A stretch of DNA of 64,000 bases from Candidatus Omnitrophota bacterium (GCA_028716565.1 JAQUPL010000008.1:13067-77066), one strand, 5' to 3'; positions 24,590-55,842 are shown, numbered from the stretch's first letter. Notes: generated by a model from the letters alone, not told the origin. Made by a program: numbers and translations.

Positions 24590-24829
24590 CTAGCCGACAC
24601 AGCGCCTCACCTTAACGAGCTCGACCAATTCTCCCACAGTCTCTACTATCCCGACCTCTTCATCGGATATTTTGATATTATACCTCTCTTCCAGGTCGAT
24701 TGCCAGCCTTACCAAGTCCACGAAATCCATATACAGATCCCCTATCAGCCGGGACCCGGGCGTGATCCTTTCGAGCGGCATTTTTATCTGGTCGTTTATC
24801 AACTCCCTTATCTCTTCGAATAGGCTCAT
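24590..24829 (-). CDS. acyl carrier protein-like protein lacking the conserved phosphopantetheine-attachment Ser (DLYMDFVDL instead of DLGxDSLD)
   Basis: ACP-like length and helix pattern. Its start ATG overlaps the patatin stop as ATGA at 24829..24826. Confidence 0.5.
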   Translation of the reverse strand: MSLFEEIRELINDQIKMPLERITPGSRLIGDLYMDFVDLVRLAIDLEERYNIKISDEEVGIVETVGELVELVKVRRCVG

Positions 24830-25992
24830 TGCATCATTCCCGGAGGAACTTTCTTCCAATCGTATCCCTGTAATGCCTCCTTAAATCCCAAATCAAAAAG
24901 TCCACGCATTTCGATGGGATCGAAAGGTTCCTTCGCTTTGGACACATGGGTCGCCGGTATATAGGCCAGGTTGAAATCCCCCTTGCCCAATTCCGTAAAA
25001 GCATACAACTGATATATATCCCCGACGCCCTGGGCGTTCACCATTGTATCTACCGTGCGCTCCGCAATGGCAGACATCCTGTCCGGGACTTCTTTCCAGA
25101 TCGCGTCCGCATAGCCGTTCCTTATCACGTATATCTTGTACCGCAGGTTGCGGATACCTATCCCCTTCTGTTTCATGGCTTCTTCTATACCCTGGACAGC
25201 ATCATAAAGAAAGAACACCTGCTTCGCTACCCCGCCGTCGACATGCATCTCGTCATACGTCTTATCGCCAACCTGTACCTTTAAATACACCGGAGGAAAA
25301 GCTATCGGGATGGATGCCGATGCCAGTATTACCTTGCGGAATAACATTAGGGCCCTCTCATCGCCTATTGAAGCGATCTTCCCCATATCCCATATTACGA
25401 GACGCTGGGCGTCAAGGTTGGTGGTGCCCACATAAAGCCTGCGGCCCTTGTCATATTCGGAGGCTATTTCCTTTAATAATCGCCCGTCAAAATATTTTTC
25501 GATACGGCGTTTCAGCGGCCTGGGGCTCGCGAAGGAATTCACGAACGGGATGCTTATATTCATGATATCTTTTGTCGAATACTTCGTGTAAAATTCCTCC
25601 AACTCGCCGTCATATTTATTTCCGAGGAAGGCGAAAGGCGCTATGATCGCTCCGGTGCTTATACCGGTAACGACCTTAAAGACCGGCCGTGTCCCGGACT
25701 GTGTCCATCCGCTGAGTAAACCCGCGCCGTATGCGCCGTTAGCGCCCCCGCCCGAAACCGCAAGCATCGAATACGTCGCGCCTATCCCGCCCGCGTCGAC
25801 CAAACCAATCATATCTTTCTTGAAATACTCGGTCGGGACGCCGCTATAGACCCTGATATTGCTCATGCCGGATATGCTGGCATCATTCAGCATCTTTTCC
25901 GGGACGGCATGGCGTACGCTCGCGCAGCCGGATACAAGGAAGATAGCGGCCGTTATTACGCAAAACTGGTTTACCCTTTGGAAGTTTCTCAT
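24826..25992 (-). CDS. patatin-like phospholipase lipoprotein
   Basis: Lipobox (LVSGC), oxyanion GGGANGAYGAG, GISTG (GxSxG) and a DGG catalytic Asp motif. Confidence 0.8.
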   Translation of the reverse strand: MRNFQRVNQFCVITAAIFLVSGCASVRHAVPEKMLNDASISGMSNIRVYSGVPTEYFKKDMIGLVDAGGIGATYSMLAVSGGGANGAYGAGLLSGWTQSGTRPVFKVVTGISTGAIIAPFAFLGNKYDGELEEFYTKYSTKDIMNISIPFVNSFASPRPLKRRIEKYFDGRLLKEIASEYDKGRRLYVGTTNLDAQRLVIWDMGKIASIGDERALMLFRKVILASASIPIAFPPVYLKVQVGDKTYDEMHVDGGVAKQVFFLYDAVQGIEEAMKQKGIGIRNLRYKIYVIRNGYADAIWKEVPDRMSAIAERTVDTMVNAQGVGDIYQLYAFTELGKGDFNLAYIPATHVSKAKEPFDPIEMRGLFDLGFKEALQGYDWKKVPPGMMQ

Positions 25993-27528
25993 TTAATGGA
26001 TCATGACCGTCCCTTTATTCTTGACCTCCCTGAAAATAAACACCAGGAACACGCAAGAGAAAGCGATGATCCCGTAATAGCGGAAACAATCGATATATGA
26101 AAGAAGGGCGGACTGGCGTAATAATTCCCTGTAAAGCAGGCCGTCCGCGAGGCCGGCATACGCCTTCGATACCTGCTGATACAGCTGATTAAAAGGGTTC
26201 AACTGGCCTACAAGTATCGCCTGGTGCGTCTGCGCCATTCGGGAAAGTATCGTCGTCGATACCGCGATGCCGACGCTGCCCCCGATATTCCTCATGAGGT
26301 TAAAAAGCCCGGAGCCGTTTCCAATATCCTTGGCATGCAACGTCCCGAAAGCCACGATCGACAACGGCACAAAGACCATCATCGTGCCAAAACCCAGGAC
26401 AAAAAGCGGGATCACCCTCGAATCCATGGAGATCTGCAGGTTAATATTGCCGAGAGACAGCGCCGCAATCCCGATCATGGCCAGGCCCACGGCCATCAAC
26501 ACCTTATTTTCAAAGTATTTACATAAACGCGAGACTGACAGGGCCCCGGTAAAAGCCCCTATCCCAAGCGGGACCAGTATAAGCCCGCTTAAATAGGCCG
26601 TATACCCCATCATCGTCTGGTAAAAGAGCGGCATGAGCGCCATCACTCCGTACATGATCGAACCGATCATAAAAGCGATTATCATGCCTCCGGTAAGGTT
26701 CCTGTCCTTAAGGATACGCAGATCGACCACCGGATGCTTTACGCGGAATTCCCATAAAATGAACGCGACAAGAGAAATGACGACAATGATCGATGTCCAA
26801 CATATCCAGGACGCCTGGAACCAATCCGCCTCCTGGCCTTTATCAAGAACGAGCTGCAGCGCGCCCAAGCCGATAGCCATCAACGCGAACCCGTAATAAT
26901 CGATGCCGGTCCTGATCTTCCGGATGTACGGCGGGTCTTCAACGAACACCTTAGACATCAGGATGGCGATGATCCCGACAGGCACATTGATGAAGAAGAT
27001 CCACCGCCATGAGAAATTATCGGTAAGCCAACCGCCGAGGACGGGGCCTATAATAGGCGCCACGATGACTCCCATCGCGAAAACCGCCATGGCTGAAGTG
27101 CGCTTCTCCTTCGGAAAACTTTCCAGCAGTATTGCCTGGGAGATCGGCTGGAGGGCCCCTCCTCCTATTCCCTGGAATATCCGGAACAGGACCAATTGAC
27201 TGAGGCTGCCAGCTATGCCGCAAAGGACGGAGGATAGGGTGAACAGGGATATGCAGATAAGAAGCACCCTTTTACGGCCGAAAAAACCGCCAAACCATGC
27301 CGAAGCGGGCAAAATAATCGCATTGGCGACAAGATAACTTGTTAAGACCCAGGTCCCCTCGTGAGTAGTCGCGGAAAGGTTTCCCGCGATCTGCGGCAAA
27401 GCCACATTCGCAATGGAGGTGTCCAGGACTTCCATGGTCGCGGCCAACATGACTGCGATACAGATCAGCCAAGGGTTGCTTTTAGGGCGCCATTCTTCGG
27501 ATTGAATAGCGTTGCTTCCCTTATCCAT
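25993..27528 (-). CDS. MFS drug:H+ antiporter, DHA2 (EmrB/QacA) family, 14 TMS
   Basis: 511 aa with conserved MFS motifs (GGFFGRKR). It follows an HlyD-family gene. Confidence 0.85.
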   Translation of the reverse strand: MDKGSNAIQSEEWRPKSNPWLICIAVMLAATMEVLDTSIANVALPQIAGNLSATTHEGTWVLTSYLVANAIILPASAWFGGFFGRKRVLLICISLFTLSSVLCGIAGSLSQLVLFRIFQGIGGGALQPISQAILLESFPKEKRTSAMAVFAMGVIVAPIIGPVLGGWLTDNFSWRWIFFINVPVGIIAILMSKVFVEDPPYIRKIRTGIDYYGFALMAIGLGALQLVLDKGQEADWFQASWICWTSIIVVISLVAFILWEFRVKHPVVDLRILKDRNLTGGMIIAFMIGSIMYGVMALMPLFYQTMMGYTAYLSGLILVPLGIGAFTGALSVSRLCKYFENKVLMAVGLAMIGIAALSLGNINLQISMDSRVIPLFVLGFGTMMVFVPLSIVAFGTLHAKDIGNGSGLFNLMRNIGGSVGIAVSTTILSRMAQTHQAILVGQLNPFNQLYQQVSKAYAGLADGLLYRELLRQSALLSYIDCFRYYGIIAFSCVFLVFIFREVKNKGTVMIH

Positions 27529-28430
27529 TACCGGACCTTTATCTCGGCAATGACCGACATGCCTACGCCAAGATCATACTTATTGTAGGGTTGGCCGTCA
27601 AAAACGATCTTTACCGGTATGCGCTGGACCACCTTTACAAAATTCCCCGAAGCGTTTTCGGGCGGGAACATGCTGAATTTTGCTCCGGTGCCGCGCTGGA
27701 TACTGTCCACATGGCCCTCGAAGATCTTACCGGGATACGTATCTATCTTTATCCTGACCTCCTGTCCGGGCCTGACATTTTTAAGCTGGGTCTCTTTATA
27801 ATTGGCGATTACCCACATATCATTCGAAACAACCGCCATAAGCCCCTGCCCCGGCTGTATCTGGTTTCCCGCCTCGACGGACCTTTTTGCCACATGGCCG
27901 TCCGAAGGAGCGCATATCTTCGTATATTCCAGGTTGCGCTGCGCGATCTTGAACTGCGCTTCGGCAGCCTCGGCCTGCGCTTTCGCGAGGTTATACGCGG
28001 TAACGGCATTCTCGAACCTCTCCTTCGGGTATACTTCTTCTTTATATAATGCCTCGGCGCGATCCCTGTCGCGAGATGCCTGCTCAAAAGCTACCTTTCG
28101 TATATCCAGGGCCGCCTGTGCCCCGTTCACCCTTAATTCGTAATCTATCGGGTCTATCTCGACCAGGACGTCCCCTTCTTTCACGATGCGGTTATCTTCC
28201 GCATTCACTGTCTTGACCGTCCCCGGGATCTTGGCCGCGATGCTATGGATCCTGCCTTCGATGTATGCGTCATCGGTGGACACGCGGCTGATGCCGCCAA
28301 TGATGAAGAGGATGAATACCACGGCGGCAGCGCCGCCTGCCGCTAAAAATATTCCCAACAATTTCGTCTTCTTAACGTTTTTCAGGTTCATTTTTGTTCT
28401 CCATTGTTTCGTAGATGAGCGCGAGGTCAA
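27528..28430 (-). CDS. HlyD/EmrA-family membrane fusion protein
   Basis: N-terminal TM helix, coiled-coil, and a lipoyl/beta-barrel membrane-fusion-protein architecture. Confidence 0.8.
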   Translation of the reverse strand: MTSRSSTKQWRTKMNLKNVKKTKLLGIFLAAGGAAAVVFILFIIGGISRVSTDDAYIEGRIHSIAAKIPGTVKTVNAEDNRIVKEGDVLVEIDPIDYELRVNGAQAALDIRKVAFEQASRDRDRAEALYKEEVYPKERFENAVTAYNLAKAQAEAAEAQFKIAQRNLEYTKICAPSDGHVAKRSVEAGNQIQPGQGLMAVVSNDMWVIANYKETQLKNVRPGQEVRIKIDTYPGKIFEGHVDSIQRGTGAKFSMFPPENASGNFVKVVQRIPVKIVFDGQPYNKYDLGVGMSVIAEIKVR

Positions 28431-29733
28431 TACCCATCGAATACATAAGTTTTGCGTAATTACGCTTCAGTTCGTAATCCGCGCCGTAATAATTTGTCTG
28501 CGCCCTCGTCTGCAGCGTTATCGCTTCAAGCACATCCGTAGATGTGGCGGCTCCGGCCGTATATTTCACGCGGTATGCGCGGACGTTCTCACCCGCCTGC
28601 TCGAGCGCTTCCGAGGCGACGGAGACCTTTTCGCAGGCATCCTTAAGGCTCAAATGGCTGTTTTCAACCTCGAATTTTATATCCTCGATAAGTTTGTCTT
28701 TTTGTTCTTTTATCTGCTTTTGCAGAGCGCGCTCCTTGAGCAGGTCGGCCCGGGCTGCGCCGCCGTCATACAGGTTCATCTTGACCCCCAGGTTGACCGA
28801 CATGTTGTCTTCGTGCACTTGGTACCTGTTTTTAGTATGGTTATAACCGCCGTCGGCATAAAGAACCGGAAGGTTTTCTACCGCCTTTGCTTTTTCGCTC
28901 GAGACAGACGCTTTTATCCTGCTTTCATAGAAAACTATCTCCGGCCTCTGTTCCTGCGCCGTGATCCAGGCATCCTCTATCTCGGGGAACTGCGGCAACT
29001 GCATATTTATATCCTGCGCGATGAGCTTCTCTCTCAGCGAGAGGGCCAGGATATTATTCAAGCGCGCGGCGGCGACTTCTTTCCCATTGCGTGCCGCTAT
29101 CAATTTCTGCTTCGCGTCGGCAAGCTTGACCTTAGCGGGAAGCAGGTCATTCTTTACTATAACCCCCTGCTCAAACAGATGTTCCATATCTTTAATATAA
29201 GAGGTGAGGCTTTCGACTTCCTTCTCCGCGACATTTATAAACTTCTCCGCTTCCAGCAGGTTGAAGTAAGCCACAACAAACTCCAGCGTAGCTACCCGCT
29301 TGACGCTTTCGCTGCGGGCCTTTACCGCCTCGACCATCTCCTTTGACGCATGGTAGTTAGAGAGGCTCTTGCCGAAGTCGAATAAAGTCTGATAGACATT
29401 GGCCCCGAAGGAATACGGGTTTTGGTCCGAGGTCGGTACCACCATGCCGCCGAATTTCATCTCGGGCTTGTTATTATTGAAGGTCTGCGCAGCGCCTATA
29501 TTAAGGTGCGGCAGCAGCACGGAGCGGGCGATCATCGAGTCCTGGAAAGCCATGTCATTATCAAAGGAAGATATTTTAACCAGGCGGCTGTCCTTTTGCA
29601 CTATCGAAATTCCTTCCTGGATAGTGAGGAGCCTGCCGTCCTTTCCCGCGGCCTGCTCCGCATAGGTAAGGTGGCCCGCACAGGCCACCATGGCGCAAAC
29701 CGCCGCAACCGCAAATACATTCTTAGTTGCCAT
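28372..29733 (-). CDS. TolC-family outer membrane efflux protein
   Basis: Two repeat halves of the OEP family. Start MATKN at 29733 follows AAGGA. The track ORF starts at 29778. Confidence 0.75.
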   Translation of the reverse strand: MATKNVFAVAAVCAMVACAGHLTYAEQAAGKDGRLLTIQEGISIVQKDSRLVKISSFDNDMAFQDSMIARSVLLPHLNIGAAQTFNNNKPEMKFGGMVVPTSDQNPYSFGANVYQTLFDFGKSLSNYHASKEMVEAVKARSESVKRVATLEFVVAYFNLLEAEKFINVAEKEVESLTSYIKDMEHLFEQGVIVKNDLLPAKVKLADAKQKLIAARNGKEVAAARLNNILALSLREKLIAQDINMQLPQFPEIEDAWITAQEQRPEIVFYESRIKASVSSEKAKAVENLPVLYADGGYNHTKNRYQVHEDNMSVNLGVKMNLYDGGAARADLLKERALQKQIKEQKDKLIEDIKFEVENSHLSLKDACEKVSVASEALEQAGENVRAYRVKYTAGAATSTDVLEAITLQTRAQTNYYGADYELKRNYAKLMYSMGIDLALIYETMENKNEPEKR

Positions 29734-29790
29734 ATTTAATCCTTCCCGTCGCATTTGTATGTTTTCTTGAATGAACACTAATATCTTAAT

Positions 29791-29841
29791 ATGAACGTAT
29801 GTTCATTTATGAATGATATCATTCATTTTGGGTTTTGTCAA
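29791..29841 (-). promoter_or_regulatory. efflux operon promoter (TTGACA-17-TATCAT) overlapped by two palindromic operators: TGAATGATATCATTCA (29810-29825) and ATGAACGTATGTTCAT (29791-29806)
   Basis: -35 at 29841..29836 and -10 at 29818..29813. Palindrome 1 covers the -10. Palindrome 2 lies just downstream of the transcription start. Confidence 0.6.
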
Positions 29842-29868: not shown

Positions 29869-30486
29869 CTATTTATCTTCGGAGATGCCTCTTAACAGGC
29901 ACTTTAATATGACGCCGGACACGCCAACCAGGCTCTTCTTGTTTTTGCTGTTTTCCTTGAACCATTTCAGGACAAAAGATTTCATGATCGAGGTCAATAT
30001 ATCCAGGACTTGTACGGGCTCAAAATCCCTGCTTATGACCCCCTCCTTCTGGCCCTGCTTGACTATATCTTCCATATATTTTTCGAACTTTTGGCCGGCA
30101 GGGGTGTTCCTGATGCTCTTCTCCGCAAGCATCATATCGTCGGATTCCGAAACGAATATGCGGAAGAAGTCCAGGTTCTCCTCGAAATACGCGAGTGATT
30201 CGCGCACGAATACCCCCAGCTTGCCTTTCGAGTCCTTTGCCGATGCCATCTTCTCTTCGACTACAGACAGCATACCCTTTAACTTTTCCGTAAAAAGCGA
30301 CCGGTACAGTTCATCCTTATCCTTGAAATGCAGGTATACAGTGCCTGTCGCGTACTGGGCTTCCTTGGCGATATCCCTTATCGTCGCCTTGTGGTATCCC
30401 TTCAGCGCGAAGATATGCTCTGCAGCCGCGAAGATATCCGACCTCCGTAACTGCCTGTCCCTTTCTCTCCTGTTCAATACAGCCAT
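29869..30486 (-). CDS. TetR/AcrR-family transcriptional repressor
   Basis: TetR N-terminal HTH (ATIRDIAKEAQYATGTVYLHF). The start is set at MAVLN because the operator and promoter occupy the longer-ORF region. Confidence 0.8.
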   Translation of the reverse strand: MAVLNRRERDRQLRRSDIFAAAEHIFALKGYHKATIRDIAKEAQYATGTVYLHFKDKDELYRSLFTEKLKGMLSVVEEKMASAKDSKGKLGVFVRESLAYFEENLDFFRIFVSESDDMMLAEKSIRNTPAGQKFEKYMEDIVKQGQKEGVISRDFEPVQVLDILTSIMKSFVLKWFKENSKNKKSLVGVSGVILKCLLRGISEDK

Positions 30487-30516
30487 TTCGCCTCGTCTAG
30501 AATTGTATCTAATTAA

Positions 30517-30565
30517 TGAACGTATGTTCATAAATTATATACCATCTATTCTCGCCTATGTCAAG
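30517..30565 (-). promoter_or_regulatory. tetR promoter (TTGACA-17-TATATA) with operator ATGAACGTATGTTCAT immediately downstream of the -10 (autoregulation)
   Basis: -35 at 30565..30560, -10 at 30542..30537, operator at 30517..30532. Confidence 0.6.
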
Positions 30566-31775: not shown

Positions 31776-32396
31776 CTACTTTAGATTATTTTCTGCAAAA
31801 CTCCAATTGATCAGCTTGTCGAGGACGGCGTTAACGTAATCCGCGCGGCGGTTCTGATAATCCAGGTAGTAAGCGTGTTCCCATACGTCGATGGTCAATA
31901 GCGGCTTCAAGCCCTTAGTCAAAGGTGAATCCGCGTTGCCGGTCTTGGCCACATTAAGCTTATCGCCATCCAGCACAAGCCACGCCCAGCCGCTGCCAAA
32001 TTGAGTAGTCGCCGCGGCCGCCAGTTCCTTCTTGCATGCATCCACGGTCCCGAAAGAAGCCTCGATCTTTGTTTTCAATGCTGCGGGTACTTCGCCGCCA
32101 TTCGGAGTCAAACTATTCCAGTAAAACGCGTGGTTCCACGCTTGCGATGCATTATTGAAGACCGCGGCTTTTTCCGCTTTGCCGGCTGTCGCGGCGATGA
32201 TTTGGTTTAACGCCATACCGGCAAATCCAGTTCCTGCAACCAGCTTGTTCAGATTGTCGACATACCCTTTATGATGCTTGCCATAGTGGAAACTGACCGT
32301 ATTCGCGGAGATCACGGGAGAAAGCGCGTCTTGCGCATATGGTAAAGGCGGCAAAACATGCGCAGTTGCACTTTCAATCTTGTCATTGCTCTCCAT
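31776..32396 (-). CDS. Fe/Mn superoxide dismutase
   Basis: HHxx[17 protein letters not shown] signature. Start MESNDK at 32396 follows AAAGGAGG. The track ORF is N-terminally extended. Confidence 0.9.
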
Positions 32397-32433
32397 TATT
32401 CCTCCTTTGTTAGGGCTACTCTCCTTAGATATA

Positions 32434-32464
32434 AAATGTCCGCCCCTGCTAGAGGCGGACATTT
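32434..32464 (-). terminator. 11-bp-stem hairpin (AAATGTCCGCC / GGCGGACATTT, 9-nt loop) between the SYLF gene stop and the sod RBS
   Basis: Perfect inverted repeat, followed on the minus strand by UAUAUCU and then the SD AAAGGAGG of sod. Confidence 0.45.
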
Positions 32465-32519
32465 GCGCCGATCGCATAAATACCATTTATGATTCTTATC
32501 GTGAGAGCCAATTATATTT

Positions 32520-47442: not shown

Positions 47443-48897
47443 TTAAATCCTTTCTCGAGTCAGTCTGTCGAGGATCGCACGCAGCGATACCAGCCCGATA
47501 GTCGTCTGTTGGTCGTTTAACGCGTAAGGGATAATAAGCGTATCGCTATGGACCATTGCTCCGCACGAATAGACGACGTTCGGAACATACCCCGAACGAC
47601 TATTATCCTCCCAATGAATAAGCGGTTCGCTCAACCGGCCAATTACACGCGAAGGATCTTCGCGGTCAAGCAGGGCAGCGCTGATCGAATATTGGCGCAT
47701 CGGCCCGACGCCGTGGGTTAGGAGCAGCCACCCGCGGTCGGTCTCTATCGGAGAACCGCAATTCCCTATCTGCACGAACTCCCATGGATATAATGGACTC
47801 ATTAATGGAACGGCCTCATGCCAGAAATGGATATTATCGGAATACATAAGGAAAAGGTTCTCGTTATCGTTCCGGGAAACCATCGCGTAACGGCCATTTA
47901 TCTTGCGCCGGAACAAAGCCATCCCCTTATTGACCGCCGCCCTGCCGTTCAAGGTGATCATTTTAAAACGGATAAAATCTTCCGTCTCCATTATTTGCGG
48001 CAGGATAACCCTGCCGTCATACGCCGTATATGTGGCGTAATATTTCCCGCTTCCATCATCATTCTTAAAATATACGAAACGCGCATCCTCCATACCGTTC
48101 TGCTCGCTTGGAGAAAGCGGGAACAGGACGCGTTCTGAAAGCGGGAACTTCGGATCGAAAGTAGCTTCATAATTACATCGTGCCAGCCACAAGATCTTTT
48201 CGCAGGTAAGTTTGTCTGTCTGGGTTATCGGATGATGGCCTGCAGTGTAATCCCTGACCTTCTCTTCCAGCTGCTCCATGGTAAACTTTTCCGGTAACGG
48301 GTCCGTAATGTATTTTGAGCAGTTATTCTCCAGCCCCATTTCATAGAGTTTTCCGATGAAACACATCTTATCATAAAGAGCGCTCGGTTTCGGTTCGGCG
48401 GTACACGCGAGACCGGAAGTTTTGTCAATCGATACAGTTCCATATTTGTCTATGAGCCCCGAACGGAACACTAATGTAGATATCTGCCCCTCGCCTGTGG
48501 CGCGCAAAGAAATAATAAAACGCAGGGATCCTTCGGAAACCCCGGATTGGTCGGGATGCGCTACAATAGAAGGATTGAAGAGACCCGTTGATTCATATGA
48601 ACGCTCGCCGATGAAGTACGCTCCTATGAGAAGCCTGCGCGTTTTAGAGGGTGCAAAATCGGGAGGCATATATGCGCAGATGACCTCGAACTGGCGCTCA
48701 AGGATAGAATCAAAATTATGGTGTCGCGCTGAAAAATCCCGTACGGTCTTCTTCAATTCTTCTTCCGCGGCGGACTCGTCAAGAGCCATAATGCGCGAGA
48801 CGATCCCCGGGACGCGTGATTGATTCCCTGGAATGTACGGCCTGATGATGACGCGCCCGCTATCAGGGGCGATGACTATACCGGTATTCTTTATCAT
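47443..48897 (-). CDS. two-domain protein: unknown roughly 250-aa N-terminal domain plus GH130-family (beta-propeller glycoside phosphorylase/transferase-like) C-terminal domain
   Basis: C-terminal DARFVYF ... YYATYTAYDG and further GH130-like motifs. Confidence 0.6.
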   Translation of the reverse strand: MIKNTGIVIAPDSGRVIIRPYIPGNQSRVPGIVSRIMALDESAAEEELKKTVRDFSARHHNFDSILERQFEVICAYMPPDFAPSKTRRLLIGAYFIGERSYESTGLFNPSIVAHPDQSGVSEGSLRFIISLRATGEGQISTLVFRSGLIDKYGTVSIDKTSGLACTAEPKPSALYDKMCFIGKLYEMGLENNCSKYITDPLPEKFTMEQLEEKVRDYTAGHHPITQTDKLTCEKILWLARCNYEATFDPKFPLSERVLFPLSPSEQNGMEDARFVYFKNDDGSGKYYATYTAYDGRVILPQIMETEDFIRFKMITLNGRAAVNKGMALFRRKINGRYAMVSRNDNENLFLMYSDNIHFWHEAVPLMSPLYPWEFVQIGNCGSPIETDRGWLLLTHGVGPMRQYSISAALLDREDPSRVIGRLSEPLIHWEDNSRSGYVPNVVYSCGAMVHSDTLIIPYALNDQQTTIGLVSLRAILDRLTRERI

Positions 48898-51173
48898 TCC
48901 TCCAAGGGCTCCTTAAGACTTTCGAGAACATTTTCCATCTCTGTCATCTCGGTCAGGGAAAGAAGAAATGAAAGCGTAGATTCAGCGCCTTGATTGCGGT
49001 TCACCCTGTTAATGTGAAGCCCGTCGCAGCATCCGCCCGTCACCGGGTCATATAGTGAAATGCCGAGATCGTTGCTACCGAGGAACCACTGAAAAACATT
49101 TAAGGCTTCCTCGTACCACATCTTGTCTTTTGTTACGCGATAGGCATCGAGGCATGCCGAAACGGTAGCATAGGCTTCCACCGGTTGCTGGTCAAAGACA
49201 GGCTTGACCCCGCCGCGAATGTATTCGCCATCCGTGCCTACCGGCTGGAAATGGCCGCGGGACGAGGTCTGTACCTTCGTAAGCCAACTTAAAGACTCAA
49301 CCCCGGATCTCAGCATCTCTTCGTTATCGAGATCGTGTCCGCTTAACAAAAGGGCATGGGGTAATTTGGCGTCGCAATACGTCAGGGATGATTCAAACCA
49401 TCGCCATTCCGCATCGCTATTTGCCTTGTAAAGATCGTGAAGCCGAGCAGCGAGTGTCTGCAGGCAGTTGCGTGCGAGCCTGTCCCCGTGAAAACGCTGC
49501 AGATATTCATGTATACCTAGCAATATGAAAGCCCATGCGCGCGGCGAAGTAAACGACACCGAAGGGGCAAGCGCCTTTTCGAATAACTCGACCGACATCT
49601 GGGTAAAACCTTCATTTTTTGACCGCCCGATGCAGGTACCGATAGCCCATATCGCCCTACCGTGGCAATCTTCGCTGGACGTTTCTTCTTTCCAATTTCG
49701 CTGGAAGGTCAGGAAATTCCTGAACCGTACCATGGAGGGATCCCACGCGTATTTGACAAACCCGAGGTAACGGCTCGAGAGATCGTTGATCTTAAGAGGA
49801 TTTATGGTACCGAGGTTCTCAAGCAGGACGGTCAGGATGAGCGCCCGCGCATTGTCGTCTGTGCAATACCCTTCGGAAAAGTTGGGGACATTGAACGTGG
49901 CATGCTGGAAGATCCCGATGGAATCGGTCATCCTTACGAGATGATCTAGCTTGATATCGGGCAATACGGGAACCTGTTGTTCAAGAGGATACATCGTCAC
50001 CTTCTTTTGCGTCGCTGGAGAACGTTTCATTTTTGCTTCTTCAAAGATCGACGTATATTTTGACGCAACATTGCTCCATATCATCTCGCGGCCTAAAAGA
50101 TAGGCATTCTTGCGCATCGTATTACGTTCGTTTTCATTGACGATAAGCCTTGTAACCGCCTGCCCTATCGCTTCCGGATCGTTGAACGGTACAAGAATGC
50201 CCCTGCCGTCGCTGAGCAGTTCGGCGGCATGCCAGTATGGGGTCGAGATTACCGCGTTTCCTACGCCGAACGAATAGGCAAGGGTCCCGGAAACTACCTG
50301 CGCTTCTTCAAAATACGGGGTAATATAAATATCGGCGAGCACGAGCAACTCTTTAAGTTCTTCAGAAGATACGAAACGATTATGAAAAATGACATTACGC
50401 GAGATCTCAAGCTCATCGCAAAGACGTTGTAAAAAAAGCCTGTATGATTCACCCTCGTGTCTTAATAGATTGGGATGCGTAGCGCCGACGACTATGTATA
50501 CGGTGCTCGGACGCTCTTTTATGACTTTGGGAAGTGCGCGCAGGACTACCTCTATCCCCTTGCGCGGAGAAAGCAGCCCAAACGTAAGGAGCACGGTCTT
50601 GCCCTCAACCCCATACTGGTCTTTATAGAAATTCGGGTCGATGAAAGAAACGTCGGGTATCCCGTGCGGGACCAGCCGTATCTTAGATCCGTGTATCTTA
50701 TTTACTGCCTGAAGGATGTCGGCAGCCTTTTGCGTCATTACGACCGCATAATCAGACAGGCCAAGCAATTCATCCATAACGCGTCTCTGGCGCGCGGACG
50801 GATTTTTCAGTACCGTATGCAGGGTCGTTATTATGGGCATCTTCAATTGGCGTAATAAAGCCAATATATAACCGCCTGCGTCGCCTCCAAAAATACCGAA
50901 TTCGTGCTGAAGACAGACAACATCGATGTCGTTGAGGTTGAGGAAATCCGCTGCGGCTTTGTACGAGTCTATATCCTGCTCCTTGATCTCGAAACGTACG
51001 CGTTCCGGATAATCGTAACCTTCCTCGATATCCGTGACAGGTATCGCGAATACCTGGACAGAAGGGTTCAAGGCCGCGAACGCCTCGCAGATATCCGTGG
51101 TAAAAGTCGCGATGCCGCAGCGTCTGGGAAGATAATTTCCTATGAACGCTATCTTTTTGATATCATTGGCCAT
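48894..51173 (-). CDS. GT4-family glycosyltransferase fused to a C-terminal (alpha/alpha)6 glycosidase-like domain
   Basis: The N-terminal roughly 390 aa carry GT4 motifs (E-x7-E region, GGIPE-like). The C-terminal roughly 370 aa form a six-hairpin-like domain. The gene overlaps the GH130 start by 4 nt. Confidence 0.7.
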   Translation of the reverse strand: MANDIKKIAFIGNYLPRRCGIATFTTDICEAFAALNPSVQVFAIPVTDIEEGYDYPERVRFEIKEQDIDSYKAAADFLNLNDIDVVCLQHEFGIFGGDAGGYILALLRQLKMPIITTLHTVLKNPSARQRRVMDELLGLSDYAVVMTQKAADILQAVNKIHGSKIRLVPHGIPDVSFIDPNFYKDQYGVEGKTVLLTFGLLSPRKGIEVVLRALPKVIKERPSTVYIVVGATHPNLLRHEGESYRLFLQRLCDELEISRNVIFHNRFVSSEELKELLVLADIYITPYFEEAQVVSGTLAYSFGVGNAVISTPYWHAAELLSDGRGILVPFNDPEAIGQAVTRLIVNENERNTMRKNAYLLGREMIWSNVASKYTSIFEEAKMKRSPATQKKVTMYPLEQQVPVLPDIKLDHLVRMTDSIGIFQHATFNVPNFSEGYCTDDNARALILTVLLENLGTINPLKINDLSSRYLGFVKYAWDPSMVRFRNFLTFQRNWKEETSSEDCHGRAIWAIGTCIGRSKNEGFTQMSVELFEKALAPSVSFTSPRAWAFILLGIHEYLQRFHGDRLARNCLQTLAARLHDLYKANSDAEWRWFESSLTYCDAKLPHALLLSGHDLDNEEMLRSGVESLSWLTKVQTSSRGHFQPVGTDGEYIRGGVKPVFDQQPVEAYATVSACLDAYRVTKDKMWYEEALNVFQWFLGSNDLGISLYDPVTGGCCDGLHINRVNRNQGAESTLSFLLSLTEMTEMENVLESLKEPLEE

Positions 51174-51354: not shown

Positions 51355-52698
51355 CTATATTCTCCCCTTGATGATTTTGATTATTCTCAATAACATCCCC
51401 GTAAGACTCTTCCTTCTCGGATGGTATTCAGGATAAAGCTCTTCGATAACCTTCCCCGTTTCCACTTCTATGGATGAGGATTTCTTTACAGCGAGGACTT
51501 GGGACGGGTAAACACTTCTATGGCCGGTCATCAGAAAGCTTATAATACACCCTAGAGTGGCGTAAGGAGCTACGGTGGGCCCAAAGAGTTCGACCGCCAT
51601 AATACTTGCCGCTATAGGCGTATTAGCTGCCCCCGCTAATAGGCTGACCATGCCGATCGCGGCGAAAGTCGCTACATCAAGGCCTAAGAATTTCGCAAAT
51701 ACCACCCCTGCTGCCGAACCGACAAAAAATATCGGCGTAACTATGCCGCCGCTTCCGCCAAAATTAAGCGTAACGCTTGTGAAAATTATCTTTAATATAA
51801 ACGCGTACCAGATAATATTCACCCCTTGCAGGCAGGATTGGATTGTATCCAAGCCGAGGCCGAGATATTGTTTCGAAAATATCAGCGCCAGGACTACAAT
51901 GGCAAAACCGCCGATAAGACCTTTTAACGGCTTCCATACCCTGACCTTATTCGAAAGCTTTTCGGCTAATTTCAATATCTCTATCATGAACGCGGCGCAT
52001 AAGCCGAAAAAGATTCCGGATAAGACTACTTTAATAAAAAATGCGTTGCTGAAGATGGGAATGAGATTTATCTGGCCATGAAAATAAGTTATTCCAAGGG
52101 ACGAGGAAACGTGGTAGCTGATTATTCCTGCTATAAAAGAGGGCAAAAGGACGTCATATAATATACTGCCTACAAAAAGCACTTCGACGCCGAATATAGC
52201 GCCGGCTATGGGTGTGCCAAAAACCGAAGCGAAACCGGCGCTTATGCCGCATATGACCAGTTTTCTCCTGTCTTTGTCGTCAAATCTAAAAATATCCGCG
52301 GCAACGGAGGAAAGCCCGCCTCCTATTTGAGCGCACGGTCCTTCCTTCCCCGCCGAGCCCCCTGCCGCTATAGTAATGATCGTCGTGATAAGCTTGACGG
52401 GGATGACCGCTGCTTTTATCTTTCCTGCGTGCTTATGTACAGCTTCGATAACCTTCTCTGTCCCATGGCCTTCGGCGTCAGGCGCCAGATATTTGATCAT
52501 TAGGGCACTTAAAAACAACGCGAGTGGCAGTATAAGGAAATAATAGTTATACTTCCCGCTAAATGCCGTGCTCCAGTTCAGCATCTTCAAAAACAGGGTC
52601 GTAGACAAGCCGACAATGATCCCTATGAATGTCGCAAGGACGACCCATTTTATGATACTGATAAAAAGGACTGTTTCTTCCGCTAATCTTCTTCTCAA
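51355..52698 (-). CDS. ClC-family chloride channel / H+:Cl- antiporter
   Basis: GSGIP-like, GKEGP and GxFxP-type selectivity motifs. 447 aa with about 10-12 helices. TTG start. Confidence 0.8.
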   Translation of the reverse strand: MRRRLAEETVLFISIIKWVVLATFIGIIVGLSTTLFLKMLNWSTAFSGKYNYYFLILPLALFLSALMIKYLAPDAEGHGTEKVIEAVHKHAGKIKAAVIPVKLITTIITIAAGGSAGKEGPCAQIGGGLSSVAADIFRFDDKDRRKLVICGISAGFASVFGTPIAGAIFGVEVLFVGSILYDVLLPSFIAGIISYHVSSSLGITYFHGQINLIPIFSNAFFIKVVLSGIFFGLCAAFMIEILKLAEKLSNKVRVWKPLKGLIGGFAIVVLALIFSKQYLGLGLDTIQSCLQGVNIIWYAFILKIIFTSVTLNFGGSGGIVTPIFFVGSAAGVVFAKFLGLDVATFAAIGMVSLLAGAANTPIAASIMAVELFGPTVAPYATLGCIISFLMTGHRSVYPSQVLAVKKSSSIEVETGKVIEELYPEYHPRRKSLTGMLLRIIKIIKGRI

Positions 52699-52852: not shown

Positions 52853-52879
52853 TTATAGTCCCGATGCGGGGATTATCAA
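52853..52879 (-). promoter_or_regulatory. TTGATA-16-TATAAT promoter (repeat-motif core) embedded in the 3' end of the thioredoxin-like gene, oriented toward the ClC gene (roughly 150-nt leader)
   Basis: -10 at 52858..52853. The -35 at 52879..52874 overlaps the trx-like stop codon. Confidence 0.45.
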
Positions 52880-53118
52880 GGGAATTTAACCAGGATTTTC
52901 TTTATTTCTTCCTTGCTCAATACCTTGCCAGCTGATACCACAGCACCATCTACCGCCAAAGCAGGTGTCGTCATTACGCCATATTCTACAATCTTTCCGA
53001 TATCTGACATTTTAGAGATCTCTGCGGAAATGTTTAGCTCTTTTACCGCTGCCTCGGCGTTTGCCGTAAGCTGTTTGCACTTCGGACAACCCATGCCTAA
53101 AATTTCTATTTTCATCAT
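52876..53118 (-). CDS. thioredoxin-family small redox protein (redox-active disulfide protein 2-like)
   Basis: 80 aa with a CPKC active site (GMGCPKCK). Confidence 0.7.
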   Translation of the reverse strand: MMKIEILGMGCPKCKQLTANAEAAVKELNISAEISKMSDIGKIVEYGVMTTPALAVDGAVVSAGKVLSKEEIKKILVKFP

Positions 53119-53124
53119 TTCTCC

Positions 53125-54075
53125 TTATTTCAGAATAAGATTAAACAGATACCCCGTAAATATAATTCCTATACCTACAACCGAAGCAAAAATTATAAGC
53201 AACTTCAGCTTCATGGCTTTTCGAAGTATTATAAACTCCGGCAGCGAAAGCGCGGTTACCGCCATCATAAAAGAGAGCGCCGTCCCCATAGCTACGCCTT
53301 TTTCGGTCAATGCACTGACGAGGGGGATAACGCCTGCTGCGTTGGAATAAAGAGGAATACCAATGAGCGTCACCAAAGGCACGGCAAACCAATTTCCCCT
53401 ACCCGCATACTTTGCAAGAAAATCCGCCGGGACATAGCCATGAATCCACGCCCCTAAACCGATGCCAAGAATGACATAGAGCCATATTCTTTTCAAGAGA
53501 TCCCCTGTGTATTCCTTGGCATAAGCGATCCTATCATTAAATGTCACCCCGATTGATTGAGCACAGCACGTTTGCTTTTTATGATCGAAATGTTCAACCA
53601 ACTCTTCGACTTTAAGCTTTCCGATCACTAATCCAGAAAAAATAGCTATAACAAGTCCGCTGCTAATATAGATAAAAGATATTTTCCATCCAAAAAGCCC
53701 CCACAACATAACCAGCGCCACTTCATTGATCATGGGCGAGGCAACTAAAAATGAGAATGTCACTCCCAAAGGAACTCCTGCCTCTACAAAACCCAAGAAT
53801 AAGGGAACTGCGCTACACGAACAAAATGGCGTTACGATCCCTAAAAGTGCCGCAAGTACGTTACCCCAATAACCTTTTTTTTGGCTTAAAATCGCCCGGG
53901 TTTTCTCTGGCGAGAAAAACGTCCGTATGATGGCGACAGCGAAGATAATGACGGTCAATAAGAAGAATATCTTGATCGTGTCATAAAGAAAAAAATTCAG
54001 GGCTTCGGTAAAAAGGGACCCTTGACGCATCTTAAAAATATCATAAACCAGCCGATCAATTATCGGTTTAATCAT
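53125..54075 (-). CDS. DUF318/ArsP-like permease (TPFCSCS motif)
   Basis: Signature TPFCSCSAVP and 8 TM helices. It sits immediately upstream of the thioredoxin-like gene. Confidence 0.75.
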   Translation of the reverse strand: MIKPIIDRLVYDIFKMRQGSLFTEALNFFLYDTIKIFFLLTVIIFAVAIIRTFFSPEKTRAILSQKKGYWGNVLAALLGIVTPFCSCSAVPLFLGFVEAGVPLGVTFSFLVASPMINEVALVMLWGLFGWKISFIYISSGLVIAIFSGLVIGKLKVEELVEHFDHKKQTCCAQSIGVTFNDRIAYAKEYTGDLLKRIWLYVILGIGLGAWIHGYVPADFLAKYAGRGNWFAVPLVTLIGIPLYSNAAGVIPLVSALTEKGVAMGTALSFMMAVTALSLPEFIILRKAMKLKLLIIFASVVGIGIIFTGYLFNLILK

Positions 54076-54084
54076 GGCTAATCC

Positions 54085-54399
54085 TCATCTTCTTTTCTTA
54101 ATAATCTCGCAACAGCCGCCTTCAATGCTTATGGTTTTAATATTCACTAATCCATCAGCTATCTTTCTATGAGCCGAAGTGACAATGCGAGAAAACGTGG
54201 GCCTGGAAATCTTCATTAATTTTGCAGCATCGACCTGCTTCAATCCTTCAAGGCAGGCCAGGCGCACGGCCTCAAACTCATCGAGCGTCAAATAAACGCC
54301 TTCCAGTTTATTTAAGGGTTTACAGAGCGGCTTAAAGCACCTTTCACCCGGAACACATTTTACCCATCTGGTTTTCTTAGGCCTCAAAATAGTCTCCAA
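54085..54399 (-). CDS. DUF134 (UPF0251) family predicted DNA-binding protein, paralog A
   Basis: Shared motifs with the ORF at 62383-62679 (LDE.E..RL.DLEGL.Q..AA..M.ISR.TF..IV.SAHKKIAD.L). TTG start. A start 12 nt downstream with SD GGAGA is also possible. Confidence 0.6.
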   Translation of the reverse strand: METILRPKKTRWVKCVPGERCFKPLCKPLNKLEGVYLTLDEFEAVRLACLEGLKQVDAAKLMKISRPTFSRIVTSAHRKIADGLVNIKTISIEGGCCEIIKKRR

Positions 54400-54402
54400 T
54401 TA

Positions 54403-54451
54403 TTATGAACATATGTTCATAATAATTTTAACATATTATTTTATTTCGTCA
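54403..54451 (-). promoter_or_regulatory. promoter (TTGACG-16-TAAAAT) with 18-bp perfect palindrome TATGAACATATGTTCATA (54404-54421) over the transcription start of the DUF134-permease-trx operon
   Basis: -35 at 54451..54446, -10 at 54429..54424. The palindrome core ATGAAC....GTTCAT matches the TetR operators at 29791 and 30517. Confidence 0.55.
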
Positions 54452-54507
54452 ATGAAAATTTAATAAGAAATTGGATTATACTATATCAAGGATTTTTGGG
54501 ACGTGAC

Positions 54508-55842
54508 CTAGAAATCAAAGCTTGCCTCGAACCCCAGGACCAGGGCATTGTCGACATCGCTTTTGCCGTCGGGATTAATTATATACTGTATATCGGGGGT
54601 GACGTAACACCACGGCCCCAGTTGGAACCTGTGGTCCAGTTCAAGGATCATTTCGTCGGTCTGGCCTTCCAGTTTGTCGCTGAAATGGCCGAGGATGAAA
54701 CAGAAAGCCGTGACATCGCGGTTGCGGTTGGGCGGCAGCCCCTGATAAACAAGGCCTGTGGCTATCTGATAGGTTTGCGGGTTTATGTCATCCTGCGGGG
54801 CCAGCATGCCGGCGCCCCATACCGTGAGCCCTTTAGGCCTGTCAAGCGGCAGGGCCGTCATCTGCGGGTCATGCGGTTTTTTGAGGCTCTCTGACATCTT
54901 CGCGCCCGATCTCAGATGGGACGGGCCTTCATATTCAGGCCACTCGCCTTTGTATATCATCTTGTCCGCCACGAGATAAAATCCGTAATTGCCGTGATTC
55001 CGGATATCAGGATTTGAGAGGTATGTAAAGCTGCTTGACTCATAGTAGCTTCCGAACGATATCCCCCCGGGAGTTATCAGGCCCTCCCTCTCCTGCCCAT
55101 GCCTGTAAGTTATCTGTCCGACGGTAAGATAGCCCTTATCCGTCCTCAAGCTGAAATCAGCTCCGTTTTTATTGGGTTCCGCTACGCTCGGGTCCGCGTC
55201 ATATAAACCGGTGATAACGCTCCAGTCTTTGTTTGGCTGGAAAGTGGCCCTTGTGCCCCATGCGGCAGTGCGATAATGCGGGAAAAAGATGTCGGAAGGG
55301 ATAGCACCCAACCTTCCGTCGACCGCGCTCGTCAGGTAATATTTGAACATCGGCGAGACGGCAAGGATATCTCCGGCAAAAATGCGGCCGGCCTCCAGGT
55401 TGAAAGTATCGTCAAGCACCGACTTCGAAAGTTTGAGCTCGCCGAAGTAGTAGTCGCCGGACGTAAATACCTGCTGCGGGCTGTAGAAAGACCCTATAGG
55501 GACCGTTATATCCCGGCCGCTCGCCAGGAAGTTGCTTACTTTAAGCGACAATCCCTGTATGGAAGCTATCTTCTCGAAATCCAGCACGGCAGCAAGCGAA
55601 ACAAATCCGGAATAATCCGTGGTCTGTTTGAGCCCGCCCGAAGGGTTACCTCCTGTATCCGTGGTGTAGTTCGAGGAAACGCTTATTCCGGATCTTTCTA
55701 GTGAATCGCGAAGGCCTCCCCAATTGCCCGTAGCGGTTTTTTGCGACAACCAGCCGTCGAGCGCCGAAGCGTTTGCGGCGGTTGCCGAAAGGACAAGCAA
55801 CAGTAAGATAACTGCCGCCGCTACTTTTTTATCCGGGATCAC
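54508..55842 (-). CDS. outer membrane porin (OprB-like carbohydrate/substrate-selective porin family)
   Basis: Signal peptide. 444 aa, beta-rich with a C-terminal Phe. Confidence 0.45.
   Translation of the reverse strand: MIPDKKVAAAVILLLLVLSATAANASALDGWLSQKTATGNWGGLRDSLERSGISVSSNYTTDTGGNPSGGLKQTTDYSGFVSLAAVLDFEKIASIQGLSLKVSNFLASGRDITVPIGSFYSPQQVFTSGDYYFGELKLSKSVLDDTFNLEAGRIFAGDILAVSPMFKYYLTSAVDGRLGAIPSDIFFPHYRTAAWGTRATFQPNKDWSVITGLYDADPSVAEPNKNGADFSLRTDKGYLTVGQITYRHGQEREGLITPGGISFGSYYESSSFTYLSNPDIRNHGNYGFYLVADKMIYKGEWPEYEGPSHLRSGAKMSESLKKPHDPQMTALPLDRPKGLTVWGAGMLAPQDDINPQTYQIATGLVYQGLPPNRNRDVTAFCFILGHFSDKLEGQTDEMILELDHRFQLGPWCYVTPDIQYIINPDGKSDVDNALVLGFEASFDF

Follow-up and report, generated by a model that had tools for sequence, protein, structure and literature searches.

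Which protein reads the palindrome in front of the DUF134 gene of an uncultured Omnitrophota bacterium? The window analysed here is a stretch of 64,000 nucleotides (nts) from Candidatus Omnitrophota bacterium (GCA_028716565.1 JAQUPL010000008.1:13067-77066), and the palindrome, at 54398–54427, precedes a minimal operon which encodes DUF134 (UPF0251), an ArsP-type permease and a thioredoxin. Two further sites with the same core lie far away in the window, at the promoters of a tetR gene and of the adjoining OEP-HlyD-MFS efflux operon. An earlier note on this DNA had therefore proposed either that TetR controls efflux and the DUF134 operon as one regulon, or that the DUF134 protein engages in operator mimicry. 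Judging from comparative sequence evidence, we consider it probable that the palindrome is the operator of an autorepressor, namely the DUF134 protein encoded immediately downstream. Conservation of the site, its linkage to DUF134, the covariation of protein and operator, and the homologies of the proteins are direct results of the analysis.

The palindrome and its linkage to DUF134

The 16-bp core ATGAACNNNNGTTCAT has three exact matches in the window, at 29791, 30516 and 54405, while none is expected (mean of 0.00 in 100 dinucleotide-preserving shuffles of the window); allowing 2 mismatches adds a single match, which is at chance level. The shared ATGAAC-N4-GTTCAT core recognized by the earlier note is therefore borne out. 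The copies at 29791 and 30516 are both ATGAACGTATGTTCAT and that at 54405 is ATGAACATATGTTCAT. For the 16-bp core it is correct that the difference is confined to the central dinucleotides; over the full 20 bp, the tetR-promoter site matches the DUF134 consensus at 18/20 positions. Similarly, the 18-bp perfect palindrome which had been described is real, but its length was understated, as the inverted repeat is perfect over 30 bp and contains a conserved core of 20 bp. The gene identities given at the time (DUF134, ArsP_1 permease, Thioredoxin_3, TetR and OEP-HlyD-MFS) are all confirmed by profile matches. The sole further GAAC-N4-GTTC of the window, at 17772–17783 (CGAACCTGCGTTCT), is devoid of the T and A flanks.

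Scanning species-representative genomes yielded 80 loci with a close relative of the window DUF134 (77–93% identity). In 80/80 of these loci a TTGACA/TGnTAAAnT promoter is followed, at an unchanging position ahead of the DUF134 ribosome-binding site, by TTATGAACATATGTTCATAA or a close variant of it, while the upstream DNA is otherwise unrelated. Among the 72 distinct DUF134-linked sites the TTA/TAA flanks are near-invariant and an ATAT centre is favoured, the first centre position being A in 70/72. On the other hand, three loci with tetR and ars genes (L081, L083 and L084), in which an ankyrin-repeat gene adjoins the remaining ars genes, miss both DUF134 and the palindrome. The operator thus tracks DUF134 and is absent despite the presence of TetR and ars genes, which argues against a TetR regulon.

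The distribution of the motif also bears on a different regulator. GAAC-N4-GTTC is the core of the Gram-positive-type LexA (Cheo) box, and its presence within all three sites of the window could point to an SOS regulon. However, TGAAC-N4-GTTCA occurs 137 times in 778 kb of Omnitrophota DNA, compared to 0.84 matches expected from base composition, and 137/137 matches are located at DUF134, tetR or OEP promoters, with none elsewhere and no SOS gene linked to any site. Furthermore, the conserved unit is 20 bp long, its flanks and centre are unlike those of the LexA box, and its half-site covaries with the DUF134 helix (see below). Given the confinement of the motif, within these 778 kb, to these three kinds of promoter we rejected the LexA reading, to which we attach almost no probability.

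On the minus strand, the operator core starts 2 nts past the -10 hexamer of a promoter-like TTGACG/TAAAAT sequence (10/12 matches, plus the TG extension) and ends a few nts ahead of the GGAG of the ribosome-binding site; the DUF134 orthologues begin with MRPKKTRW at the codon equivalent to the assigned start. Judged by this position, it is plausible that the operator overlaps the transcription start. Alternatively, a perfect 30-bp inverted repeat in the leader, just ahead of the ribosome-binding site, could act as a 5′ hairpin of the mRNA affecting its stability or translation, and the symmetric operator variants GCAC/GTGC, GAGC/GCTC and GCAT/ATGC would indeed preserve the pairing. We find this very unlikely for several reasons. 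Judged by position, transcription probably starts within the left arm and would thus yield an incomplete hairpin; the sequence itself is conserved in 80 species, including the 4 central nts which would form the loop; the hybrid sites (GCAC/GTTC) disrupt the pairing; and an Rfam scan of 54250–54600 gave only a sub-threshold miRNA model (E = 0.6, 18.8 bits, threshold 70).

Recognition helix and half-site

In the window protein the recognition helix is ISRPTFSRI. Covariation of helix and half-sites was counted over 91 loci comprising the window's clade and its sister clade. With R-P helices (SRPT, n = 75) the operator is TGAAC/GTTCA in 66/75 cases, and with R-S helices (n = 13) in 0/13: nine of the latter have TGCAC paired with GTGCA or GTGCG, two have TGCAC/GTTCA and two TGAGC/GTTCA. 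Finally, in the two members with Q-S helices (HQST), in which the first Arg is replaced by Gln, the operator is TGCAT/ATGCA (2/2). The association between helix and half-site, found in at least three separate lineages, has a Fisher p of 3e-10, uncorrected for phylogeny. Inside the window's clade, proteins with SRSTF instead of SRPTF go with TGCAC or TGAGC arms, the fully symmetric TTATGCACATATGTGCATAA being found in L001, L002, L169 and L170, while L063 combines a symmetric GAGC/GCTC site with the unique helix SRIICAAHKK. The sister clade (~55% identical, helix HRST[IV]SR) heads the same type of operon and displays TGCAC-ATAT-GTGCA, or a close variant, at 5/5 loci. These patterns are suggestive of a recognition code in which Arg62 or Gln62 would specify C or T, respectively, at half-site position 5, while position 3 would be A with Pro63 and C with Ser63.

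This covariation is difficult to reconcile with TetR as the common reader of the sites. The half-sites follow the DUF134 helix to TGCAC and TGCAT, while both pentamers of the TetR-linked sites are always TGAAC/GTTCA; a conserved TetR regulon is contradicted because the TGCAC and TGCAT operators of other DUF134 clades mismatch the TGAAC of all 52 TetR-linked sites. The regulon put forward in the earlier note is thus unsupported as the main explanation, and TetR as the sole binder of the DUF134 site is already disfavoured.

Among the closest relatives of the window DUF134 (89–95% identical), the majority have SRSTF and TGCAC operators, as opposed to SRPTF and TGAAC in the window; from these sequences the specificity switch seems recent, and possibly recurrent, inside one shallow clade. 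Hybrid GCAC/GTTC sites, which look like intermediates, are present in L007, L025 and L027.

The structural relatives of DUF134 offer a framework for the proposed code. The window protein is predicted to be a helix-turn-helix repressor. The family motif vSRpTFxRI..sA..K.A is present in its helix-turn-helix, and the N-terminal motif RPxxxR...FKPxGxP is present but altered by two clade-specific replacements (C in place of Y/F17 and of G22). Its Pfam matches are limited to DUF134, the PhyR sigma-like domain and HTH_29, and the Pfam scan found no ArsR-type winged helix (HTH_5 or HTH_20), while its fold matches sigma-70 region 4, KorA and the DNA-binding domain of DeoR. Modelling with AlphaFold2 (AF2) on a deep alignment (89 diverse sequences) gave a predicted local distance difference test score (pLDDT) of 86.8, with a three-helix head at residues 35–81 and short cysteine-bearing strands at the N- and C-termini. 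With a shallow alignment the pLDDT was 60, the termini were disordered and the Foldseek matches of the model had E values of at least 0.03.

A PDB search with the single DUF134 sequence gave a weak match to DeoR (E = 0.7), and significance came with the profile search: the DUF134 profile finds the DeoR DNA-binding domain of Bacillus subtilis with E = 1.9e-7 (7bhy) and 3.1e-6 (8r7y), and Foldseek aligns the shallow-alignment model of DUF134 with both structures at a root-mean-square deviation of 0.7–0.8 across 39–40 columns. In the alignment, ISRPTVSRLL of DeoR faces ISRPTFSRIV of DUF134, and DeoR R34 and R39 correspond to DUF134 R62 and R67. DeoR recognizes the operator ATTGAACAAAATTTCAAT...ACATATGTTCAA with base-specific contacts in TTGAACA, where R34 and R39, the two arginines of SRPTVSR, contact the base-pair counterparts of half-site position 5 and of the G; moreover, its OL18 operator has the TGAA-N6-TTCA geometry seen in the DUF134 site (PMC11229326). 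The pairing of Arg62 to Gln with C:G to T:A at position 5 fits this contact map. DeoR, a member of the SorC family, is the closest solved helix-turn-helix relative of DUF134, sharing with it the TTGAACA half-sites and equivalent base-contacting arginines. However, DeoR (313 amino acids) is tetrameric, includes an effector domain for sugar phosphates and has a 39-bp operator in two parts which lies upstream of the -35, whereas DUF134 has 100 amino acids, a single 20-bp palindrome downstream of the -10, and N- and C-terminal cysteine-bearing strands of its own. The SorC/DeoR effector domain (~250 amino acids) is absent from DUF134 both by Pfam scan and in the AF2 model.

From these elements a mechanism can be proposed. 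A DUF134 dimer would bind the two TTATGAAC half-sites, arranged in the TGAA-N6-TTCA geometry, through its sigma-70-region-4/DeoR-like helix-turn-helix, with Arg67 reading the G and Arg62 the last C:G pair of TGAAC. Since the site begins 2 nts past the -10 box and extends over the likely transcription start, DUF134 bound there would obstruct RNA polymerase; it would thereby repress the DUF134-ArsP-thioredoxin operon and, with it, its own gene. The inducer would probably be a thiol-reactive metalloid, with C17, C22 and the C-terminal C92-C93 pair as its sensors.

Table 1. Features of the DUF134 and tetR loci (positions counted from the first nucleotide of the window)
Feature	Position	Strand	Details
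Perfect palindrome, 30 bp	54398..54427	.	54405 site at its centre
Conserved DUF134-type operator core TTATGAACATATGTTCATAA, 20 bp	54403..54422		Kept in 80/80 orthologous loci; surrounding DNA unconserved
Promoter-like site	54425..54452	-	-35 TTGACG (54452..54447), N16, TG-extended -10 TAAAAT (54430..54425)
Ribosome-binding site GGAG	54394..54397	-	6 nts ahead of TTG start codon (54387..54385)
DUF134 (UPF0251) gene, 100 amino acids	54085..54387	-	PF02001, 72.9 bits (cutoff 27), residues 2-92
ArsP_1-family permease gene, second of operon	53125..54075	-	Pfam PF03773, 259 bits
Thioredoxin_3 gene (MTH895/ArsE family), third of operon	52876..53118	-	PF13192, 96.6 bits; TIGR00412, 106.9 bits (cutoff 62)
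TetR-type operator at tetR promoter, TTATGAACATACGTTCATTA (coding strand)	30514..30533	-	About 30 nts upstream of tetR ATG (30486)
TetR-type operator at OEP-HlyD-MFS promoter, AAATGAACATACGTTCATAT (coding strand)	29789..29808	-	6 nts past -10 of TTGACA-N17-TATCAT
FadR-like TetR-family repressor gene	29869..30486	-	Pfam TetR_N
Efflux operon	24826..29733	-	OEP/TolC-like 29733..28372, HlyD-type adaptor 28430..27528, MFS pump 27528..25993, patatin-like lipase 25992..24826 (Pfam)

The ars-type operon and its candidate sensor

What signal could such a repressor respond to? The genes behind DUF134 in the 80 loci point to arsenic. An ArsP_1 permease follows DUF134 in 71/80 loci, an ArsF-family protein (NF040494, 113.9 bits, cutoff 60) is found in 52/80, an ArsE-family thioredoxin (TIGR00412, 106.9 bits, cutoff 62) and a DsbD_2 membrane protein in 46/80 each, the arsenite methyltransferase ArsM (NF008823, 353.6 bits, cutoff 263) in 36/80, ACR3 (TIGR00832, 409.9 bits, cutoff 282.8) in 19/80, and an LMW-PTP ArsC-like protein in 6/80. 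The order DUF134-ArsP-(ArsM)-thioredoxin-ArsF-DsbD-ACR3 recurs across these loci and the sister clade, the window operon being a minimal version (DUF134-ArsP-thioredoxin) without ArsM or ACR3. Overall, the DUF134-led operon is best read as a putative arsenic or organoarsenical detoxification module in which DUF134 stands where ArsR usually is.

The cysteines of the window protein (C17, C22, C45, C92 and C93) are specific to its clade. In the wider family, sampled as 3095 representatives of clusters at 50% identity, the corresponding positions are occupied by Y/F, G, D and, for the last two, by residues other than Cys; compared with this sample, only the ars-linked clades bear these cysteines. 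Four of them (C17, C22, C92 and C93) are common to the ars-linked sister clade, where position 45 is Y, H or D. Their placement, including the vicinal pair, would resemble that of the known As(III) S3 sites of R773, AfArsR and CgArsR. Because DUF134 heads ars-type operons and bears clade-specific cysteines, these sequences suggest a repressor which senses metalloids without being a member of the ArsR family; the chances that the clade is indeed a metalloid sensor appear to us about even.

With the ArsR/SmtB autorepressors DUF134 shares the small size, a helix-turn-helix, the first position in an ars-type operon and a palindromic operator at the promoter. This autoregulated first-gene arrangement would be a functional analogy, as the fold is unrelated: DUF134 (PF02001) has a sigma-70-region-4/DeoR-like three-helix head with short flanking beta strands. 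The DUF134 case would therefore represent an ArsR-like control logic exerted by an unrelated and uncharacterised family, for which an operator and a recognition code can be predicted. The recruitment of a non-ArsR family to ars genes has a parallel in a subfamily of MarR regulators which are reported to control arsenic genes (bioRxiv 10.1101/2021.08.12.456183); they belong to a different protein family, and their role is experimentally supported.

In the literature library searched, DUF134, PF02001, UPF0251 and COG1342 had only unrelated mentions, with no function assigned. The family is widespread (~3,100 clusters at 50% identity) and would gain a concrete role in the autorepression of an ars-type operon, a 20-bp operator, an amino-acid-to-base code and candidate sensor cysteines. 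More tentatively, and with a probability somewhat short of even, the cysteine-bearing clade could constitute a new class of As(III)/organoarsenical-sensing repressor which replaces ArsR in Omnitrophota and neighbouring candidate phyla, with a readable DNA code and possible cross-wiring with an adjacent lipid or drug efflux operon via the FadR-like TetR. Confirmation of the autorepressor role proposed here would place a new protein family among the arsenic regulators, improve the annotation of ars islands in uncultured phyla and provide a compact repressor-operator pair (100 amino acids, 20 bp) for biosensor design.

A few loci display additional features. In several metagenome-assembled genomes (L009/L011/L043 in JAZDPX, L007/L030, L012/L065 and L026/L031) DUF134 genes head two or three separate ars-type operons, and all of these have the same operator; here one repressor pool could control several operons, or the bins could be mixed. 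DUF134 loci with an intact operator are also found in bins labelled as other phyla, namely Patescibacteria (L059), Deltaproteobacteria (L072) and Planctomycetes (L010, L012, L016 and others), which could be due to mis-binning, mislabelling or horizontal transfer of a regulator-operator-ars cassette. Finally, L031 contains, at 7309–7605 and downstream of its ars-type operon, a DUF134 paralogue of the typical kind without cysteines (40% identical). The small protein encoded next (MRKEKAKNHFLGKNECVRLNCGQ...) resembles, judged by likeness only, a C_GCAxxG_C_C-family protein. The sequence TTGGCATATGCTAA lies upstream of this paralogue and has the CATATG centre in common with the operator; other DUF134 subfamilies may be autoregulated via related palindromes.

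TetR, its own operators and possible cross-talk

The two sites at the tetR locus remain to be explained. The best NCBIfam match of the TetR-family protein is Bacillus FadR (84.6 bits, far under the cutoff of 200), and its best PDB matches, over the full length, are FadR of B. subtilis (3whb, 1vi0) and of Bacillus halodurans (5gp9, 5gpc). All its orthologues, retrieved from metagenomes with 50–83% identity, have TGAAC-N4-GTTCA after the tetR -10 and again ahead of the OEP gene. Equivalent sites were found at 28 distinct orthologous tetR promoters and 24 distinct OEP promoters; in 52/52 of them both pentamers are invariant, as is the TetR helix-turn-helix, while the centre varies and the flanks are degenerate (A/G preceding the T, and T, C or A following the A).

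In addition to this core, the tetR and OEP promoters have a conserved TGAATGnTA at the extended -10 and a further (G/A)TTCA ~14 nts downstream. They therefore carry four half-sites ~20 bp apart in a roughly symmetric array, which suggests that TetR may bind as a dimer of dimers. B. halodurans FadR does so on GATGAATGAATACTCATTCAT, each dimer occupying an inverted repeat of 16 bp whose halves are 4 bp apart (PMC5397183). The Bacillus FadR repeat (ATGAAT-N4-ATTCAT) and the sites of the window (ATGAAC-N4-GTTCAT) have the same 6-4-6 layout, here accompanied by outer half-sites resembling TGAAT/ATTCA. Unlike Bacillus FadR, which is linked to beta-oxidation genes, the window TetR is linked to OEP-HlyD-MFS efflux and a patatin-like lipase. 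Since its FadR relatives bind the same 6-4-6 layout, the sites at tetR are explained by TetR itself. Next to the OEP operator, ATGAATGATATCATTCAT (29809–29826) closely resembles the B. halodurans FadR site. As a true TetR site this palindrome was rejected, since only its left part, TGAATGnTA, which overlaps the extended -10, is kept in the orthologues; it is probably an outer half-site combined with a promoter element.

Could TetR nevertheless bind all three sites, alone or beside DUF134, and co-repress the DUF134 and efflux operons? The 16-bp core is the same at all sites apart from its centre, and gene order offers a further argument. In the four closest TetR orthologues (79–83% identity; L161/L082, L081, L083 and L084) ars-type genes immediately precede tetR and share its strand. 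In L161 (1357–12230; same contig as L082 and L038) the series DUF134-ArsP-ArsM-thioredoxin-ArsF-DsbD-SBF is followed, after 88 bp, by tetR-OEP-HlyD-MFS, and the window keeps this order and strand with the two operons 22 kb apart. However, besides the co-absence and the covariation described above, the DUF134 sites are set apart by near-invariant flanks and an ATAT centre, as opposed to the degenerate TetR sites. Furthermore, the outer TGAAT/RTTCA half-sites (~20 bp either side of the core), which probably support the dimer-of-dimers binding of a FadR-like protein, are absent from the DUF134 promoter of the window and from the 80 orthologous promoters. Taken together, we judge TetR control of all three sites unlikely.

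Some results, on the other hand, weigh against the assignment of the palindrome to a DUF134 autorepressor. On the weight matrix of the TetR sites, the window DUF134 site scores 30.0 bits, within the range of the real sites (18.6–32.7), and 21/23 distinct DUF134 operators fall inside this range, which speaks in favour of the TetR regulon. The code is not followed throughout: 9/75 SRPT proteins have operators with single- or double-arm variants, and L004 (DUF134 at 4001–4300), whose helix is SHPTF with R62H, retains TGAAC/GTTCA around an odd CGTT centre and is an exception to it. The covariation statistic, besides being uncorrected for phylogeny, draws on some three to four independent changes. 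In L062 the DUF134-led operon ends with an ArsR-like gene which has the ELCVCE motif, so both regulator types can coexist. The arsenic assignment of the window's own operon would hold by orthology, because ArsM and ACR3 are missing from this copy. Finally, we infer each functional step of the model, namely binding, repression and metalloid sensing.

The opposite form of cross-talk was also considered, in which DUF134 would additionally bind the tetR-promoter site in this lineage and couple efflux to the DUF134 signal. Besides matching the DUF134 consensus at 18/20 positions, this site scores 28.0 bits on the weight matrix of the DUF134 sites, where the real DUF134 operators reach 26.2–35.5; 9/48 TetR-linked sites attain the DUF134 range, including those of L081 and L083 (TTATGAACGCGTGTTCATAA), and close relatives have the two operons side by side. 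However, the OEP-promoter site has just 19.4 bits and most TetR-linked sites are well under the DUF134 operators (median 20.9). The first centre position, which is A in nearly all DUF134 sites, is often G in the tetR sites of this lineage, and L081 and L083 retain such sites without a DUF134 gene in the locus. Binding of DUF134 at the tetR promoter therefore appears improbable.

With DUF134 preferred as the reader of its own operator and TetR of the sites at tetR, the likeness between the two kinds of site can be attributed to similar preferences of two unrelated DNA-binding heads, each probably inherited from its own family (DeoR and FadR, respectively). As the relatives of both prefer TGAA-N6-TTCA, coincidence of ancestry would be enough. 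Of the operator mimicry by DUF134 suggested earlier, the part that is favoured is DUF134 as the binder, in line with the 80/80 linkage, the co-absence, the covariation and the DeoR homology; mimicry as such is not needed, since inherited preferences suffice. The case calls for caution in regulon prediction: near-identical operators of two unrelated regulators can occur in one genome, and a shared motif does not amount to a shared regulon.

In the ~22 kb which separate the two operons of the window (30600–52870), all large open reading frames (ORFs) are encoded by the minus strand; among them are a CLC channel at 51355–52698 (Pfam Voltage_CLC) and, identified by eye from the translations, a glycosyltransferase-like ORF of 759 amino acids at 48894–51173 and a superoxide dismutase-like ORF at 31776–32486.

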